From: a phage | Length of the DNA: 64,000 nucleotides | Assembly: GCA_018865545.1 (NCBI GenBank) | Contig: GCA_018865545.1_3633.1 | Reading direction: 5' to 3' (one strand) | Shown: positions 34 to 27,086 of the stretch, piece after piece | Position numbering within the stretch: position 1 is the first letter of the stretch | How the letters are laid out: each line of letters opens with the position of its first letter | The notes under the pieces: generated by a model | Seen by the model: only the letters and a program-made list of their open reading frames with translations | Told to the model about the DNA's origin: nothing | The model's database searches: none | Made by a program: the position numbers and the translations under genes

Positions 34-468
34 TTACTCTTCTGGTGTATCCCAATCGAGATGACTATGGAGAAACTTCCTCACGTACTCCCTTGCATCC
101 GTTTCTTGTGTGTGGTCATCTGCCCACATTTTAGCCACATTCCCAGCCACTTCGTAGAGTTCCCTCTCAAAATCTGTGAGTCCTGGGAGAATATTTACCA
201 AGAGTTTTTCACTCTCTGATATATTTTGTGGGTCAAGTGTCATGCTGGGATCAATTAATGTTTTCCAACCAGACCCAAAAAATTTCTGTATTTCAAGAGA
301 TTTCCTTGTGCAACTTACAAAATATTTTGTGGTATCTTGTCTAAGCGACCCAAAAATAAATTTACCACCGTTCCAACTCTTCCATGATATATCTATGGCA
401 CACCCTAGAGACAGGAAGTGAATATCCACTAACATGTCGAAAACTTTTAATTTATTTTGCGTGTTCAT
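34..468 (-). CDS. hypothetical protein
   Basis: 144-aa ORF, no recognisable motif. Confidence 0.35.
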   Translation of the reverse strand: MNTQNKLKVFDMLVDIHFLSLGCAIDISWKSWNGGKFIFGSLRQDTTKYFVSCTRKSLEIQKFFGSGWKTLIDPSMTLDPQNISESEKLLVNILPGLTDFERELYEVAGNVAKMWADDHTQETDAREYVRKFLHSHLDWDTPEE

Positions 469-1888
469 CTAAATTTACAGCCCTTCCGAAAGGTGGTACA
501 AATTTATTATTTCCGCGACCACAAATAACCCAAAGAATATCCCATTTGCGTCCCCAATCTTTTTTCTTGTGTCTTAAATCCTCTATATATCCGTCTGTAA
601 AAATAATAACGTCTTTTGCATCAAAAATGTTATTTTCAATATACTCAAAAGCCGATGCTGCAAGTGTCCCACCCGTATAATTTACTTTATAATCAAGCAT
701 TTCCTTGATATTATCATGTGTATAAACTTTAACCTCTCCGACTTTTGTTGACCAACAGAACAATGTCACGCGAAAAACGCGGTAAAGCTGGCATAATCCT
801 ACAATTTCTCCGAAGATTTTGTCTAAATTCGCCTTCGAAATTGATCCAGACACATCGAAGCCAATAACTATATCTATAGTATTATCGTACTCCCTTCCTG
901 GTAAAACAATATGCTGTTTTTTTCCAATAGCTCCATACTGCCGAAGTGCCTGTGTCATAGATCCAGACCTACGAGATGGTTTCCTGTATGTCAGGTTAGA
1001 CTTGATCCGAGAAAGCATACGCTGTTTGATTATCTGAAGATAATTTATGTGTGGTTTACGCATTCTTGCAATAACGTCACGCACCTCTTTCGGCCCCTCT
1101 CCTCCCGCTGCTTCCATCGCGGCCTCGATAAGACCAGATGACCACGACATATTATCATCTTTTTCTGCTTGGCTTGGCACTGGGTGAGGATCTTCATATC
1201 CTAGGATATTGCTGTCTTGATCATAATCACCTATGTGTGTGCCCATAGGTTTACCAACAGACGGTTGGCCTTTGTTTATGAGACTGTAAATCTCCTCCGC
1301 TGTCTTACCGTGGAAATTAAAATCACAGTAGCAATAAGCCATAAACCCAAACTCTTTACCTTTGTCAAAGGTTGTCTGTTTCCCCATTGGGAAGAAACAC
1401 ATCTGGCTGGAGCGTGGCCCAAGATCAGACACCACTAAATCCGTGTTAATATAATGATCTGCTGCTGTGTTGTAGGTTTTAGAATCAAATGCTTTTCCAC
1501 GGGATAAATGATCGTTAGTAATATGACGTAGCTCGTGCATAAGAATAACAACAACCTCTTTGGGTGTTTTCTTACGATAAAATACGTTCACATAGTCTTT
1601 ATAGTCATCTTTTTCTTGTTGTGTCATTGTGGGGTGATTATCCACACGCTCAAAAACCTTCTTCTTCCTTTCTTCAGGCATACCCATAATAAACTCAGGG
1701 TTGAAGTAGAGGTTTTTGTGATCAGTCGCTGCTGTTGGCAACCATTTCCAGTTAGCAACTAAGGGTAGAGAACTTAACAAAGTCCCGTAAAATGGTCTGT
1801 ACTTTAAAAGAGCTATTCGTGCCGATTGGATAACTTTTACAGCATCCTTCTCTAACTTGGCAATCATTTCATATTCGTCTTTTTGCAT
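452..1888 (-). CDS. VWA-domain protein with N-terminal HExxH metallopeptidase-like domain (MoxR-partner type)
   Basis: HELRH motif; C-terminal MIDAS-like GFDVSGS and FTDG motifs of the von Willebrand A fold. Confidence 0.7.
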   Translation of the reverse strand: MQKDEYEMIAKLEKDAVKVIQSARIALLKYRPFYGTLLSSLPLVANWKWLPTAATDHKNLYFNPEFIMGMPEERKKKVFERVDNHPTMTQQEKDDYKDYVNVFYRKKTPKEVVVILMHELRHITNDHLSRGKAFDSKTYNTAADHYINTDLVVSDLGPRSSQMCFFPMGKQTTFDKGKEFGFMAYCYCDFNFHGKTAEEIYSLINKGQPSVGKPMGTHIGDYDQDSNILGYEDPHPVPSQAEKDDNMSWSSGLIEAAMEAAGGEGPKEVRDVIARMRKPHINYLQIIKQRMLSRIKSNLTYRKPSRRSGSMTQALRQYGAIGKKQHIVLPGREYDNTIDIVIGFDVSGSISKANLDKIFGEIVGLCQLYRVFRVTLFCWSTKVGEVKVYTHDNIKEMLDYKVNYTGGTLAASAFEYIENNIFDAKDVIIFTDGYIEDLRHKKKDWGRKWDILWVICGRGNNKFVPPFGRAVNLDEHAK

Positions 1889-1899
1889 AATTATGCTCC

Positions 1900-1932
1900 A
1901 TACAAAAATAGGCTATCTTTCGACAGCCTATT
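1900..1932 (-). terminator. rho-independent terminator
   Basis: 8-bp stem AATAGGCT/AGCCTATT with 10-nt loop, U-rich tract on minus strand; between stop of 1940..2203 and start of 452..1888. Confidence 0.45.
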
Positions 1933-1939
1933 ATACTTG

Positions 1940-2203
1940 TTATTTTTTACTTGTAAATAATTCTATGGTATCAAGCGGCATAAAATTATTACCGCCAGTT
2001 AATCTGGCTCCCCATACCGGAACTTGTCCTCCAGTTGGTTGGTGTGGGAACATAAATAATACTATAGCCTCTACAGAAGTTATAACGTTTCTGGCATTTT
2101 TATAACGAACCCTATCACCAACTTTAAAATTTGGTTTCTTTCCAGATTCAATCATCTGGGCTTCTTGATCGGTAGCTGGCCTTCCAAGAATCTCTTCAAA
2201 CAT
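1940..2203 (-). CDS. hypothetical protein
   Basis: 87-aa ORF in operon-like arrangement. Confidence 0.35.
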   Translation of the reverse strand: MFEEILGRPATDQEAQMIESGKKPNFKVGDRVRYKNARNVITSVEAIVLFMFPHQPTGGQVPVWGARLTGGNNFMPLDTIELFTSKK

Positions 2204-2204
2204 A

Positions 2205-2393
2205 TTATTTTACCTCTTTATTACCGACATTCCACCAACTTACAGCAGTAGGCTCACTCAGAGCCTGTGGCCCAGATGTTCCACATTTCTGGCAGTAAAT
2301 GTAGTGAAATATTGTTTGACCAGAGCGTGATTGTTTAAGCAGAAGTGCATCATTTTTACAAAACGGACACGGTTTTGGTAGAGAATCTTTCAT
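2205..2393 (-). CDS. Lar-like restriction-alleviation zinc-finger protein
   Basis: 62 aa; CPFC...CQKCG cysteine pairs and SWWN motif resembling the Lar family. Confidence 0.5.
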   Translation of the reverse strand: MKDSLPKPCPFCKNDALLLKQSRSGQTIFHYIYCQKCGTSGPQALSEPTAVSWWNVGNKEVK

Positions 2394-3208
2394 TAAACCA
2401 CCTTGTTCAGCATAGCTGTAATTTTTGGTAAACTCATTTTCGTATTGATCATGAGTTGTGTTAATGCTGTTTCCATCTTTTCAGAAACAATAATGAAGTT
2501 GTCTTTTGCAAACCCAAGATCTAAATCCATAATGAGAATAGGTTTTGGTGTTTTTGTTAACTTCTCCCCTGTTAGAGAACAGGTGTTTCTTGAATATTTA
2601 GCCTTAAATTGTGCATAAGTAACGCTAACATTCATACCTGCTTCTGCAAATGTTTTACAGTAGTTTGCGTATGCAAGTGCAATTTCAACATCGTCAGGAA
2701 GAGATTTTTCTTTCATCTCTTCAACCTGCTCATCAATAATTACGTTCTCTGTCTCTTTCATATCTGTTTCCGTAGGTATGTATTTAAGTTTTAACTTTTC
2801 CAAGTGATCCTTTGACATATTTAACATCATTCCTTGGACGATATCCATGTCGAGTGGATCTACAATCGTTAGAGCTTTCTTTTTGTCTACAAGAAAATCT
2901 TTTAACTGGTTTGCTCTCTTACCGACTACACAAACGTTTCCACGAACATACCCTTTTTTGTCATCTATTCGTTCAACAGACGGGTAGAGGGGGTCATTAG
3001 GTGTCGCAGAAAAAGGTAGGCCTGTGTAATCACAAACACCTTTCCCAAGTAATCCGTTGCCCATCATAAACCAGTCATCTTCTGTCAGATTGAACTCTAT
3101 ACCTCTCGCTTTGGTATTCCTCTTTTTGAAAAAGAGTCGTGTTTTGAGATACCTTATCTCTTTGGTTGTAAACTCTTCATTCCAGTTCATACAGAATATC
3201 TCTGTCAC
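2393..3208 (-). CDS. hypothetical protein with degenerate HNH-like motif
   Basis: 271 aa; PSVERIDDKKGYVRGNV segment resembles nuclease-associated DNA-binding motifs; acidic C-terminal half. Confidence 0.35.
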   Translation of the reverse strand: MTEIFCMNWNEEFTTKEIRYLKTRLFFKKRNTKARGIEFNLTEDDWFMMGNGLLGKGVCDYTGLPFSATPNDPLYPSVERIDDKKGYVRGNVCVVGKRANQLKDFLVDKKKALTIVDPLDMDIVQGMMLNMSKDHLEKLKLKYIPTETDMKETENVIIDEQVEEMKEKSLPDDVEIALAYANYCKTFAEAGMNVSVTYAQFKAKYSRNTCSLTGEKLTKTPKPILIMDLDLGFAKDNFIIVSEKMETALTQLMINTKMSLPKITAMLNKVV

Positions 3209-3254
3209 TTAACTTGTGTTCGTAGTATCTCACAAATTTCCAGTTTGTCAAGTA

Positions 3255-3319: not shown

Positions 3320-4174
3320 ATGGCAAAGATACCTGACGAAAACATTTCTTCTTATTTTGATGACTACCTGCATCACACAAAATCTATGAAAATAAATTTT
3401 AATGTATTCCGTGAAGCCATTATAAGGGAAGTTGAAAGTCGCCACCATGAACCAAACCCTTTAATAGAACTCATAAAACATGCTGTGCTTATGTGTTTTG
3501 ATACTCTGGATAGGAAATGTTACTGGAAATATTATGTTGAAGCTGACGAGCGTGCTTACATGGCAAGCGTAAACTTAACGCATGAGTTTTCAAGCTATGA
3601 TATTACTTGTGGGCAAATAACAATTTCTTTCCAAGGCTTTAATTATGGAATGTGTTTAGCAGGATCGTTGTCTGCACGAACACAAAAATTCCTGTCTGTT
3701 TTGTCCCAATTGGGGCATTGGGATGGTAATATGTTTTCCATAAAGGCTTCCTATGTCAGAACAAACCCAGATATTCTCCACATCAGGGAGATTAACTCCA
3801 GTTTTGGATCCTTTTCTCTGGCGGGTTGTTATGGAATGTTTTACCAAACAAAGATGTATGATTATGCAGGTCATGCTGCAATTAAGATAGCCAACACGCC
3901 AAACGTAGAGAATAAGAAATCGCACTACTACTTGGTGTGTAATACCCAAGAAGTAATGTACCATCGTGTTGTAGAAAAGGAGCTAAAAGAGCTTATCTTG
4001 GGGGAGATCCCTACCCAAGAGGAACGCTCAATGATAGAAATGGCTGGGTACAAAGGAGAATTTTTTCTTGATTCTCTTGTAGATTTTGATAATATTGGTA
4101 TAAAACCCTTTAACATGCAAGAGGCATATGAATGGCACAATCGAAGTCTGTCCCCAGTAACATGCAAGATTTAA
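3320..4174 (+). CDS. hypothetical protein
   Basis: ORF from ATG 3320 (track start 3314 is TTG); no motif recognised. Confidence 0.45.
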   Translation: MAKIPDENISSYFDDYLHHTKSMKINFNVFREAIIREVESRHHEPNPLIELIKHAVLMCFDTLDRKCYWKYYVEADERAYMASVNLTHEFSSYDITCGQITISFQGFNYGMCLAGSLSARTQKFLSVLSQLGHWDGNMFSIKASYVRTNPDILHIREINSSFGSFSLAGCYGMFYQTKMYDYAGHAAIKIANTPNVENKKSHYYLVCNTQEVMYHRVVEKELKELILGEIPTQEERSMIEMAGYKGEFFLDSLVDFDNIGIKPFNMQEAYEWHNRSLSPVTCKI

Positions 4175-4629
4175 GACCCCATCAGGAGTTGGCTTTAGCT
4201 ATAAAATTGGCCTCTGAAAACCATCTTAAGCAAAAAGATCGTGGTGGAATGCCCTACATTCTTCACCCATTAAGGGTGATGCATGAACTTGGTAATGATG
4301 ACTTACAGCTAATGGCAATCGGTGTCCTTCACGATATCCTTGAGGATACTAAAGTTACAGCTTACGATTTGGTAATGTTAGGGTTCACTAACAGAGTAAA
4401 AGATGCAGTTCTTCTGCTAACAAAGAAACAGAGCCTGACTGAAGAAGAGTACATTGAGGGCATCTGTACTAATTATGATGCGATTCGTGTAAAACTCGCT
4501 GATTTAAAAGACAATATGGACGTAAAACGTCTTAAATCCTTATCAGATAAGGATTTGGCAAGGTTAAAGAAATACCATGAAATGCATCTTAAACTTGCTG
4601 ATGCAAGAAAAAGATTCGAGGGGAAATAA
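4132..4629 (+). CDS. HD-domain hydrolase, small alarmone hydrolase (Rel/SpoT HD)-like
   Basis: HPLRV...LMAIGVLHDILEDT matches the HD signature of (p)ppGpp hydrolase domains; 165 aa. Confidence 0.55.
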   Translation: MAQSKSVPSNMQDLRPHQELALAIKLASENHLKQKDRGGMPYILHPLRVMHELGNDDLQLMAIGVLHDILEDTKVTAYDLVMLGFTNRVKDAVLLLTKKQSLTEEEYIEGICTNYDAIRVKLADLKDNMDVKRLKSLSDKDLARLKKYHEMHLKLADARKRFEGK

Positions 4630-5398: not shown

Positions 5399-5634
5399 AA
5401 CCTCTTGATTTTTCAGAGAGAGCGGAGTATTTAAAAACCGTTGTTAGAGCGAGGATGACACGACGACAATGGTTTTTAGTTTTTGGTGCAGAAAGAGTAG
5501 ACAATTTTTCTGCCAAAGACCTTGCATCAAGCATTATGAATCTGTATGCTGATATTGAATCAGCAGATATAGACAGTATCATTGAAAGTTATCTTGAGCA
5601 GAAGAACGATTTAAGGAACGAGACGAATGTCTAG
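5392..5634 (+). CDS. hypothetical protein
   Basis: 80-aa ORF overlapping neighbours by a few nt. Confidence 0.4.
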   Translation: MVKPLDFSERAEYLKTVVRARMTRRQWFLVFGAERVDNFSAKDLASSIMNLYADIESADIDSIIESYLEQKNDLRNETNV

Positions 5635-6835
5635 TAGAAATATTTTTGAAGATCATCGTGTTACACTCCGTGATATTCCAAGCCTCATGAAATTTTGTAA
5701 GAAGGCAAACAAAGCACTTATGATGTTTGGTGGTGCTGGGCTTGGTAAGAGTCAAGTCATGAAGCAAGTTGCCAATGAGATGTTTGGTGAACGAGATGAT
5801 AATCTCGTTGATTTTCGTCTTGCGGATAAAGATCCGACAGACGTAGTCGGTGTACAGATTCCTGTAACAGACGACAATGGAAAAACACGTACAGTCTATG
5901 CGCTACCAGATTTCTGGCCAGAAGACCCAGATTGGGAAGGTATTATTTTCCTTGATGAACTTTTACATGCTGATAACTACTTACAGAAAGTAGCTTTCCA
6001 AATTGTTTTGGATCATAAGATTGGTAAGTACACCTTTCCAAAAGGTGCAGTTTTTGCAGCGGCAGGGAACCGTCCTGGTGATGGTACGGCAGTGACCATG
6101 ATGGAAGCTCCTTTGGCTAACCGTTTTATTGTTGTGGAACTTGATTACGATGCCTCTGTGTGGATGCAGGATTATGCGTTGCGTAAAAATGTGCATCCAT
6201 CAGTAATTGGCTTTATCCAGGCCAATCCTGATAAACTGGAAAACTTCGAGGCCATGTATGAGATTAACAGTCCTGCATATGCCACACCACGAACTTGGGT
6301 TACTGCAAGTGATATTCTGTATGCGTATGAGGATGGTGATCTTACTTCCCGTCTTGCAATGGCTGCTTTGCAAGGGTGTATTGGTGGGCCATTAATGAAA
6401 GAGTTATGGTATTACCATACTCGCGTTGCTGATATGGTCCCCATTGAGAAAGTAATGGATGGTTCAATTAAGGAACACACTGGCTCTGATAGCTCTGATG
6501 TATTGTGGACGCTAGGATCACAAGGTTGCATCTGGCTACGTAAGGCTATGAAGAATACCAACTACACAGATGATCAGATTATTGACTTCTCAGCCAATTT
6601 CTTGCAATATCTGTATGATAACTTTGGTAAAGATGATGCTCATTCCAACCGCGATTTTGTATCATCTGTCTTCATGACGTTTATTAATGACAGTTCCACA
6701 GGGAAGGGTATTTTGTTAGATGGCCTTCGTGACAGACTGCCAGCGAAGTTACTTAAGAAGTATCCTGTCGTCATGCAGATTATTACTGAATATCACAAGA
6801 ACTTTGCAAAAGATGTAGATGCAATTTTAAATTAA
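5627..6835 (+). CDS. MoxR-like AAA+ ATPase
   Basis: Walker A GGAGLGKS, Walker B IIFLDEL, sensor AAGN. Confidence 0.75.
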   Translation: MSSRNIFEDHRVTLRDIPSLMKFCKKANKALMMFGGAGLGKSQVMKQVANEMFGERDDNLVDFRLADKDPTDVVGVQIPVTDDNGKTRTVYALPDFWPEDPDWEGIIFLDELLHADNYLQKVAFQIVLDHKIGKYTFPKGAVFAAAGNRPGDGTAVTMMEAPLANRFIVVELDYDASVWMQDYALRKNVHPSVIGFIQANPDKLENFEAMYEINSPAYATPRTWVTASDILYAYEDGDLTSRLAMAALQGCIGGPLMKELWYYHTRVADMVPIEKVMDGSIKEHTGSDSSDVLWTLGSQGCIWLRKAMKNTNYTDDQIIDFSANFLQYLYDNFGKDDAHSNRDFVSSVFMTFINDSSTGKGILLDGLRDRLPAKLLKKYPVVMQIITEYHKNFAKDVDAILN

Positions 6836-7468: not shown

Positions 7469-7647
7469 AGGTTAAAATGATTTCTGATTTTTCGGATGTT
7501 GATGGATATCCAAAAACAGGAGATATTCTTGAAGTAAGAGAAGAAATATTTAATGGTAGTTTTCTTGAGTGTTACTCTTGCGAATGGAATGGGAAAAGAC
7601 TGGATATCTATCCATACGAATGCGAAGAGGTATCAGACAATGCTTAA
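7465..7647 (+). CDS. hypothetical protein
   Basis: 60-aa ORF. Confidence 0.35.
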   Translation: MKVKMISDFSDVDGYPKTGDILEVREEIFNGSFLECYSCEWNGKRLDIYPYECEEVSDNA

Positions 7648-8161
7648 GTATAAAGTTGGTTGCTTAATAGAGGCAGCACTTAAAAGGGATGTTAATGTGA
7701 TAGCTCATGGTTGTAATACATTTTGCACCATGGGGTCTGGAATTGCTAAAGAAATAAAGAATACATTCCCAAAAATGTATGCTGAAGATTTAAAGACAGA
7801 GAAAGGTGATCGAACAAAACTGGGCAGTTATACTTGGGTTGTCATGAACGAAGGTAAACTGGCTGGTTTTAATCTGTACACACAATACGGTTATAATGGG
7901 CGTAGAATGGGTGTGAGGGATCTGAATTATAACGCCCTTTACGATTCCTTAGCAGCAATGCGAGATTGTTTGCAAAGGCACACAGATGGCTTTATGTCTG
8001 ATTATAAGATCGGGCTGCCAAAAATAGGTGCTGGACTAGCAGGTGGGGATTGGAAAATCATAGAAACTATGATAGAATCTGTTCTCCATGATTGTGATGT
8101 GACAATTTATGTCTTAAATGAAGAGGAGATCCCCGATGGCAAAAGAGAACATGCATCCTGA
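7640..8161 (+). CDS. macro-domain (ADP-ribose binding/hydrolase-like) protein
   Basis: VNVIAHGCNTFCTMGSGIAKEI and GLPKIGAGLAGGDW resemble the two glycine-rich macro-domain loops; start moved to ATG 7640. Confidence 0.5.
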   Translation: MLKYKVGCLIEAALKRDVNVIAHGCNTFCTMGSGIAKEIKNTFPKMYAEDLKTEKGDRTKLGSYTWVVMNEGKLAGFNLYTQYGYNGRRMGVRDLNYNALYDSLAAMRDCLQRHTDGFMSDYKIGLPKIGAGLAGGDWKIIETMIESVLHDCDVTIYVLNEEEIPDGKREHAS

Positions 8162-17409: not shown

Positions 17410-18132
17410 ATGGGAGGTGTATTGAGTGATACGGTTTTGTGCATGTTTGACGGATCAGGCATCATGGGTTACGAATGGGCAAAAAACGGGTATAAAGTAA
17501 TATGCCTTAACTATGATGATGCTGACCACGGCGGTTATGAAAGTATCCGAGTAAAACATAAAAATATAGAATACATTAATGTTTGGATAGATGACCAGTT
17601 TAACCCAACAGAGATAGGGATCTGTAAGCCAAGTATTATATTCGCATTTCCACCATGTACTGACATGGCTGTTAGTGGTGCAGCGCATTTCGCAAGAAAA
17701 GCTGCAAAAGACCCTTTATTCCAGATAAAGGCTGTAAATACAGCAAAGGTGGCAGCAAGGTTGGCAGATGAATACGACTGCCCTTACATGATAGAAAATC
17801 CTGTTAGTGTTCTATCTTCTCTGTGGCGTAAACCAGATCATTCATTTCATCCTTATGAGTACGGCGGGTATCTATCAGAGAATGATGTTCATCCGTTTTT
17901 TCCAGAATACATAAAACCCAGAGATGCCTACCCTAAGAGGACTTGTTTGTGGACAGGCAATGGTTTTAAGATGCCGGAGAAATTACCTGTCCCCGTGTTA
18001 AGAGGGTATTCTGAGCAGCACCTAAAATTGGGTGGTAAATCAAAAAAGACAAAGGTTATAAGATCGTTAACCCCAAGAGGATTTGCCAAAGCTGTATTCC
18101 TATATAATGATTTTAGGAGGGCTGGTGGATAA
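17410..18132 (+). CDS. C5-cytosine methyltransferase-like protein (compact)
   Basis: motif I-like FDGSGIMG, motif IV-like FPPCTD..SGA (PC dipeptide), motif VI-like ENP; only 240 aa. Confidence 0.45.
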   Translation: MGGVLSDTVLCMFDGSGIMGYEWAKNGYKVICLNYDDADHGGYESIRVKHKNIEYINVWIDDQFNPTEIGICKPSIIFAFPPCTDMAVSGAAHFARKAAKDPLFQIKAVNTAKVAARLADEYDCPYMIENPVSVLSSLWRKPDHSFHPYEYGGYLSENDVHPFFPEYIKPRDAYPKRTCLWTGNGFKMPEKLPVPVLRGYSEQHLKLGGKSKKTKVIRSLTPRGFAKAVFLYNDFRRAGG

Positions 18133-26162: not shown

Positions 26163-26216
26163 ATAATTTACCAAAAATGGGTTTCTTTGGCATATTTTTC
26201 ACAAATGGTTCTTATT

Positions 26217-27086
26217 ATGAAAGATAAAGTTTTTGTTCCGCCTATAAAATCGCAAGGGATTAAGACTAAACTGGTTCCGTGGATAAAGAGAATTGTTCCT
26301 AAAAACTTTAATGGGGTATGGGTCGAGCCGTTTATGGGGACTGGAGTTGTTGCCTTTAACGTTGCTCCTAAAGATGCATTATTATGTGATACAAACCCTC
26401 ATTTGATTTCTTTTTATAATGCATTGAAAAATAAAGATATAACAGGGGATCTTGTTAAGGATTTTTTATATCGTGAAGGTGAAAAACTCTTATTAAGTAA
26501 TGGTGAGTATTATTATGAAGTCAGGGAAAGGTTTAATAATTACAAGGAACCTTTAGATTTTTTATTCTTAAATAGGTCTTGTTTTAATGGTATGATTAGG
26601 TTTAATAGTAAAGGAGGGTTTAATGTTCCTTTTTGTAAAAAACCAAACAGATTTGCACAAGCATATATTACCAAGATTTCGAATCAAGTTGATAGGATTT
26701 CTGAAATAATATCAAAAGGGAACTATACATTCTTGTGTCAGTCATTTGAAAAAACTATTGGCATGGTAAATAGGGATGATGTTGTTTATTGTGATCCTCC
26801 ATATATTGGTAGGCATGTTGATTATTTTAATTCATGGGGAGAGCGTGACGAGCGTTTATTATTTGAAACGTTATCATCTTTGAATGCTACATTTATAACG
26901 TCTACGTGGCATCATAATGATTATAGGGAAAATAAGTACGTTCGTGATTTATGGTCATCTTTTAGAATATTGACGAAAGAACATTTTTATCATGTTGGAG
27001 CGTCCGAAAAAAACAGATCCCCGATGGTAGAGGCGCTAATTACAAATATCAATTACTTACCCCAGGCTGAAGCTGCGAAATGTTGA
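26217..27086 (+). CDS. Dam-like DNA N6-adenine methyltransferase
   Basis: motif [11 protein letters not shown], catalytic DPPY; local GC about 26% against about 40% for the window. Confidence 0.75.

Follow-up and report, generated by a model that had tools for sequence, protein, structure and literature searches.

A probable Lar-family zinc-ribbon protein encoded by an accessory gene of an Av-05-like phage, a candidate restriction alleviator

The stretch of phage DNA analysed here (64 kb in length, and referred to below as the window) carries on its minus strand a short gene whose 62-aa product is almost certainly, judging by profile matches, a member of the Lar family (PF14354). The explanation that best accounts for the observations is that this Lar-family zinc ribbon, the product of a clade-restricted accessory gene, acts as an alleviator of type I restriction in the manner of the Lar protein of the Rac prophage; we give this reading an even chance of being right. 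The finding is an ordinary one, with nothing new in kind, and the exact annotation already stands on the nearest published orthologue. Genome papers on Vequintavirinae, too, have mentioned 'restriction alleviation' genes of the Lar type (PMC8879037). The positions of the gene, its motifs and its neighbours, together with those of two genes that bear on DNA modification, are collected in Table 1.

Table 1. Positions in the window of the Lar-like gene, its predicted motifs, the surrounding minus-strand features and the methyltransferase-like genes
Feature	Position	Strand	Remarks
Lar-family gene	2205..2393	(-)	62 codons plus TAA stop, ATG start; single-domain protein
First zinc knuckle, C9-P-F-C12	2358..2369	(-)	Predicted
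Second zinc knuckle, C34-Q-K-C37	2283..2294	(-)	Predicted; followed by the sub-branch motif G38-x-x-G41-P42
C-terminal helix, residues 47-56	2226..2255	(-)	Predicted in AF2 model; A50, W54 and N55 form the family 'A...WN' signature
Shine-Dalgarno-like AAGGTGG	2398..2404	(-)	4 nt 5' of the ATG; within the 3' end of the Srd-like gene
Srd-like gene, 271 aa	2393..3208	(-)	Upstream; the Av-05 annotation begins at an ATG 18 nt downstream (3190)
Downstream gene, 87 aa	1940..2203	(-)	PHROG 10489, E 1.2e-33; its 'tail protein' label is doubtful
Candidate sigma-70-like promoter, TTGACA, 16 nt, TG-GATACT	3224..3251	(-)	In the divergent intergenic region before the Srd-like gene
Intrinsic-terminator-like hairpin	1907..1932	(-)	11-bp stem and T run; pattern match in a terminator scan, just 3' of the 87-aa gene
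Dam-family N6-adenine DNA methyltransferase gene	26187-27086	(+)	PF02086, 213.5 bits; TIGR00571, 272 bits (cutoff 114.85); DPPY motif
C5-MTase-like candidate, 240 aa	17410-18132	(+)	Motifs FDGSG, PPC (FPPCTD) and ENP (IENPV); PHROG 757

The original prediction, made from the letters of the window, was of a 62-aa ORF at 2205-2393 with paired CxxC motifs and a WN dipeptide. The ORF listing contains exactly one ORF in that interval, with the 62-aa product MKDSLPKPCPFCKNDALLLKQSRSGQTIFHYIYCQKCGTSGPQALSEPTAVSWWNVGNKEVK. It is read from the minus strand, a point on which the prediction had been silent, and no competing ORF was listed on the plus strand across the interval. The motifs were all present: CPFC at residues 9-12, CQKCG at residues 34-38 and WN at residues 54-55, the dipeptide being preceded by a further tryptophan to give WWN (W53-W54-N55). 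A six-frame profile search found no second Lar-like ORF in the 64-kb window. The start codon overlaps the TAA stop codon of the Srd-like gene (as TAATG), which suggests that translation of the two genes is coupled, and the AAGGTGG ahead of it is kept in phages Av-05 and TH18 (sequence comparison). At the other end, the 87-aa gene begins 1 nt past the stop codon of the Lar-like gene. Comparison with the Av-05 orthologue by the Nei-Gojobori method revealed 15 synonymous and 10 non-synonymous differences over 57 aligned codons, corresponding to a dS of 0.61 and a dN of 0.078. With a dN/dS ratio of 0.13 the gene is under purifying selection, and 2205..2393 is a genuine gene.

The description of the product as Lar-like, for which the lack of any Lar-family hit had been named as the refuting outcome, held up in profile searches. 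Against PF14354 (Lar_restr_allev) the protein scored 36.1 bits (E 7.7e-09), above the gathering score of 28.6 bits, with residues 7-57 corresponding to model positions 4-57 of 58, and PHROG 599, 'Lar-like restriction alleviation protein', was matched at an E value of 2.7e-11. The NCBIfam model TIGR03655 (anti_R_Lar) gave 37.1 bits (E 2.9e-09), narrowly under its curated cutoff of 39.6, and the RalR equivalog model NF007260 gave 13.4 bits (E 0.09), its cutoff of 113 not being reached. A word-indexed search returned one relative only, the protein being too short for the index, and an exhaustive search was used instead; among 1.84 billion cluster representatives it retrieved 334 relatives with an E value of 1e-3 or lower, of which just two had an E value of 1e-10 or lower. 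In many of these relatives the Lar domain is repeated in tandem, two to four times. Ten longer relatives were checked for domain fusions: each matched PF14354 (E ≤ 2.5e-06), nine with scores over the gathering threshold and one (P0131) just short of it, and they contained repeated Lar domains only, with no unrelated domain. In an alignment of 54 sequences, C9, C12, C34, C37 and W54 were invariant, and P10, F11, G41 and P42 were conserved in at least 90%. The distance from CPFC to the second CxxC is about 20 residues, in keeping with the four-cysteine layout of the Lar family. Judged from the sequences, the motif CxxCG-x-x-GP marks a sub-branch of the family that holds the 62-aa protein.

An AF2 model built from the 54-sequence alignment (mean pLDDT 83.2, pTM 0.62) has an N-terminal knuckle, beta strands at residues 17-24, 27-34 and 40-44, and then the helix at residues 47-56, the second knuckle being placed between the second and third strands. 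The predicted fold is that of a four-cysteine zinc ribbon in which two CxxC knuckles would hold a three-stranded sheet, with a short helix at the C-terminal end, and the protein probably binds zinc. The best structural neighbour in BFVD, with a query-normalised TM-score of 0.88, was the Av-05 protein named 'Restriction alleviation protein, Lar family'; behind it came dozens of phage proteins annotated as Lar, for which the query-normalised TM-scores were mostly 0.6-0.8. Since these neighbours are annotated as Lar, the modelled fold is taken to be the Lar fold. Sequence and profile searches of the PDB returned generic zinc ribbons only (aIF2-beta at E 0.0016, then Elf1 and TFIIS-like proteins), Foldseek gave no PDB match better than E 0.6, and no solved structure or complex of the Lar family was found in the PDB by sequence, profile or fold. 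Generic ribbons such as the aIF2-beta C-terminal domain, the Rpb9/TFIIS domain, Elf1 and Trm112 also have two CxxC knuckles around a small sheet, but they lack the C-terminal A...WN helix of the Lar family, and their homology to the window protein is non-significant.

The window is approximately 95% identical to Escherichia phage Av-05 (Vequintavirinae, Avunavirus), a phage described as having a broad host range that includes E. coli O157:H7 and Salmonella (PMC4463512). Over the first 8 kb the identity is 95.4% to Av-05 and 94% to vB_EcoM_TH18 and three sister isolates. Orthologues of the Lar-like gene occupy the same slot in Av-05, vB_EcoM_TH18, 18-1-2, 19-1-2 and 24-2-1, and their products are 81-84% identical to the window protein and agree with it in every motif residue, the DNA on either side being 94-95% identical. 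The Av-05 orthologue (YP_009111242.1 / A0A076G6A6) is named 'Lar-like restriction alleviation protein' in RefSeq and is likewise placed in the Lar family by UniProt (A0A076G6A6); those in TH18, 18-1-2, 19-1-2 and 24-2-1 are unannotated. The window protein differs from the clade orthologues by ten to twelve substitutions, mostly conservative. It has 62 residues as against 67 in these relatives, a 6-nt deletion and an earlier TAA having dropped the C-terminal tail, and while the gene of the relatives overlaps the downstream gene by 8 nt, the window copy does not.

In the phage collection the orthologue was confined to six records of the Av-05 clade, the next-best phage matches being Lar-like proteins, about 34% identical, of unrelated Salmonella siphophages. 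A six-frame profile check found no Lar-like ORF in the syntenic block of SSE121, pEp_SNUABM_01 or LL12. The Srd-like gene directly adjoins the homologue of the 87-aa gene in Salmonella phage SSE121 (Seunavirus) and Erwinia phage pEp_SNUABM_01 (Henunavirus), and in Escherichia phage LL12 (Vequintavirus) it is the metallopeptidase gene that comes after the Srd-like gene. Since the orthologue is found only in the Av-05 clade and the slot is empty in these three phages, the Lar-like gene is an accessory insertion specific to that clade, placed between the Srd-like and 87-aa genes. Such a pattern of presence and absence is as expected for a horizontally acquired accessory gene, and is typical of anti-defence and other host-interaction genes.

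Outside the Av-05 clade, the closest homologue was a 76-aa protein with 52% identity (P0002), encoded on three metagenome contigs (L004, 235-465; L005, 197-427; L006, 1369-1599). Its gene lies directly 3' of SSB and ProQ/FinO-like genes and 5' of a gene for an HTH protein, with SocA_Panacea-domain genes some 3 kb further downstream. This layout hints at the leading region of a plasmid or ICE; P0002 had no match in PLSDB.

The Lar-like gene is the middle one of three genes in a compact minus-strand unit that is apparently made up, in order, of the promoter candidate, the Srd-like gene, the Lar-like gene, the 87-aa gene and the terminator-like hairpin. The promoter candidate agrees with the consensus at 10 of 12 positions and has an extended -10 TG, although as a pattern match it comes from a region whose overall count is not above that of shuffled controls. 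The 271-aa product of the first gene matches PHROG 3118 (E 3.9e-94) as well as PHROG 1400 ('Srd anti-sigma factor') and PHROG 4592 ('decoy of host sigma70'). A tblastn comparison aligned it with srd of T4-like phages at about 28% identity, and it had no match in Pfam or NCBIfam. The likeness of this neighbour to Srd suggests that the unit is an early host-takeover operon. The Srd-like gene is conserved across Vequintavirinae, where relatives are inconsistently labelled 'HNH endonuclease', 'anti-termination protein' or 'anti-sigma factor'. An obligate pairing of Srd-like and Lar genes was considered and rejected, as the Srd-like gene occurs without Lar in three other Vequintavirinae genera. The products of 1940-2203 (-) and 34-468 (-) bear 'tail protein' labels that stem from PHROG (10489 and 6790, respectively) and have been propagated by RefSeq; these labels look unreliable, the context being early and non-structural.

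Other genes of the region may be mentioned here. It is flanked by a gene for a DUF2201 metallopeptidase and VWA protein at 452-1888 (-) and by one for a MoxR-like AAA+ ATPase at 5627-6835 (+), a pair conserved in other Vequintavirinae; RefSeq mislabels the 452-1888 protein as 'HNH endonuclease' in Av-05 and SSE121. The 202-aa ORF at 7553-8161 (+) corresponds to an Av-05 gene annotated 'macro domain-containing protein', which could have an ADP-ribose-processing anti-defence function. Relatives of the 165-aa ORF at 4132-4629 (+) are annotated as HD-domain phosphohydrolase or ppGpp 3'-pyrophosphohydrolase, and this ORF had no Pfam match at E ≤ 0.01. No Rfam family reached its gathering score across the 64-kb window, so that this stretch contains no tRNA or other catalogued RNA gene by that search, as against the nine tRNAs that Av-05 reportedly encodes.

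It had also been proposed that several restriction countermeasures may be present, a Dam and a C5-MTase-like enzyme being named. Half of this proposal stood: the Dam enzyme was confirmed by its matches to PF02086 and TIGR00571. The C5-MTase, presumably the 17410-18132 (+) ORF, is still a candidate, supported by the motifs and the name of PHROG 757 ('DNA methyltransferase', E 6.4e-87), with no Pfam, NCBIfam or PDB sequence match; the 240-aa product could be a DNA-modification enzyme of a divergent or unusual kind.

The Lar protein of the Rac prophage, also known as RalR, was the first member of PF14354 / TIGR03655 and is the only one to have been characterised. In a BLASTP comparison with the E. 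coli K-12 protein (b1348, NC_000913.3), the window protein showed 27% identity across 55 aa (E 4e-06), with the WN dipeptide and the two CxxC pairs in register. The Rac protein is of similar size (64 aa), has the same CPFC...CxxC...A..WN layout and belongs to the same Pfam family; both genes are, moreover, accessory genes in a phage early region. There are differences as well. RalR does not have the G-x-x-GP motif of the window protein, and its gene neighbours recET in a temperate lambdoid prophage and has the sRNA RalA as its partner, whereas the window gene lies beside a Srd-like gene in a virulent myovirus. At the level of homology, the proposal of a candidate anti-restriction factor is supported by the PF14354 and PHROG 599 matches, by the BLASTP alignment to RalR, by the Lar-annotated neighbours in BFVD and by the RefSeq name of the Av-05 orthologue.

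Rac Lar alleviates restriction by EcoKI and enhances modification, as does lambda Ral (King and Murray, 1995, as cited in PMC4041452 and summarised in PMC10286901); according to that summary, both proteins act by stimulating the methyltransferase. Ral, a small early protein of lambda that is also found in P22 and phi21, relieves EcoKI and EcoBI restriction and has been proposed as a functional analogue of Lar (PMC3874165, PMC10286901); it is believed to bind EcoKI directly, so that the maintenance methyltransferase of this system gains de novo activity (PMC3874165). Ral and RalR have been described as unrelated (PMC4041452). Lambda Ral is not homologous to the window protein either, the lambda Ral family having given no Pfam match to it at E ≤ 10. 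Lambda Ral is not known to be a four-cysteine zinc ribbon.

By analogy with Rac Lar, the small protein of the window would be made early in infection and would bind the type I restriction-modification complex of the host, the likely target being an EcoKI-like (type IA) complex. Binding would shift this complex from cutting towards de novo methylation, and unmodified phage DNA would survive and become modified. The window contains five EcoKI sites (6.1 expected), seven EcoBI sites (11.8 expected) and three EcoAI sites (5.6 expected). Avoidance of type I sites was rejected on these counts, which are close to chance and show no depletion; the window DNA could accordingly serve as a substrate for type I enzymes and does not escape by site avoidance, a result that fits alleviation but does not discriminate between readings. 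That the 62-aa protein actually alleviates type I restriction seems to us about evenly balanced, if anything slightly short of even, because its identity to Lar is low, the TIGR03655 cutoff was missed, no functional residues are on record for that activity and the domain is reused elsewhere.

A different job for the same zinc ribbon is a possibility that we take seriously but consider doubtful. Here the Lar fold would serve as a protein- or nucleic-acid-binding module directed at some host target other than type I restriction-modification. That target might belong to replication or to a further defence system, or it might lie in the transcription or RNA-decay machinery, where the module would act alongside the coupled Srd-like protein. 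Searches of the literature turned up no experiments on Lar-like proteins from virulent phages. The only member of the family tested for restriction alleviation is the distant one described above, which lacks the sub-branch GP motif, and the window protein scores under the TIGR03655 cutoff. In a DnaE1 polymerase the Lar domain has taken the place of the C-terminal domain (PMC3919608), and such occurrence in non-phage contexts means that it may be a generic binding module; its presence in two to four tandem copies, and the position of P0002 beside SSB and ProQ/FinO-like genes, point the same way, as does the weak likeness in fold and sequence to the aIF2-beta, Rpb9/TFIIS and Elf1 ribbons, which are generic interaction modules. 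The tight coupling to the Srd-like gene would also agree with this reading, but three other genera have the Srd-like gene and no Lar gene beside it, so the pair is not obligate. Nor is there positive evidence for any specific alternative target, and an accessory, clade-specific gene placed in a putative early operon is no less in keeping with an anti-defence role. A narrower form of the proposal, that the GP sub-branch targets another host defence, or the host machinery of the Srd-like protein (RNA polymerase sigma factor or RNase E), instead of type I restriction-modification, we hold to be unlikely. If it were true, thousands of phage proteins in PF14354 would for the most part carry a wrong 'restriction alleviation' label, passed on from one prophage gene.

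RalR itself has been reported to be a toxic, Mg2+/Ca2+-dependent, non-specific DNase that cuts both methylated and unmethylated DNA and is neutralised by the sRNA RalA (PMC4041452). The window protein shares its Pfam family and weakly matches the NCBIfam RalR model (E 0.09), and might thus be an endonuclease of this type that damages host DNA, or a toxin. Changes at RalR positions 14, 37, 39, 49, 51 and 52 reduce toxicity, and the K52Q protein is inactive, its DNase activity lost (PMC4041452). In the BLASTP alignment these positions correspond to N14, G41, Q43, W53, N55 and V56 of the window protein, so that one of the six is conserved (N51, as N55) and five are not; K52 is among the latter, being replaced by V56 in the window and by Ile in Av-05. 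The RalR equivalog score, 13.4 bits, stands against a cutoff of 113, and the predicted 62-aa zinc ribbon is without a recognisable nuclease active site. Searches of the window for a homologue of RalA gave only chance BLAST matches of 12-16 nt (E ≥ 0.37), no stretch of at least 14 nt complementary to the Lar-like mRNA was found elsewhere in it, and the Rfam search was likewise negative for a RalA-like antitoxin RNA, although an unrelated sRNA may exist. With the toxicity residues not conserved and no RalA-like RNA detected, a role as a RalR-type DNase is quite improbable.

That the ORF is non-functional, a chance or decaying reading frame between two real genes, can hardly be true: the protein is very short and ends differently from its relatives (62 versus 67 aa, through the 6-nt deletion and earlier stop), but the dN/dS of 0.13 with the register held over 57 codons, the strong Shine-Dalgarno sequence and coupled start, the significant Pfam match and the invariant key residues all speak against it, and the variable tail is a non-conserved, low-confidence end (pLDDT below 50 at residues 60-62).

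For the window itself, the finding matters little beyond correct annotation, as it adds one more orthologue to a catalogued family. For that family the case counsels caution: one experiment of 1995 underlies the functional label given to all its members, and the protein used in it is only 27% identical to the one described here and was later reported to be a DNase toxin. The question raised is general and not specific to the window: whether the Lar-fold proteins of virulent phages alleviate type I restriction, and whether, in phage-therapy candidates of the Av-05 group, this gene contributes to the broad host range reported for them.
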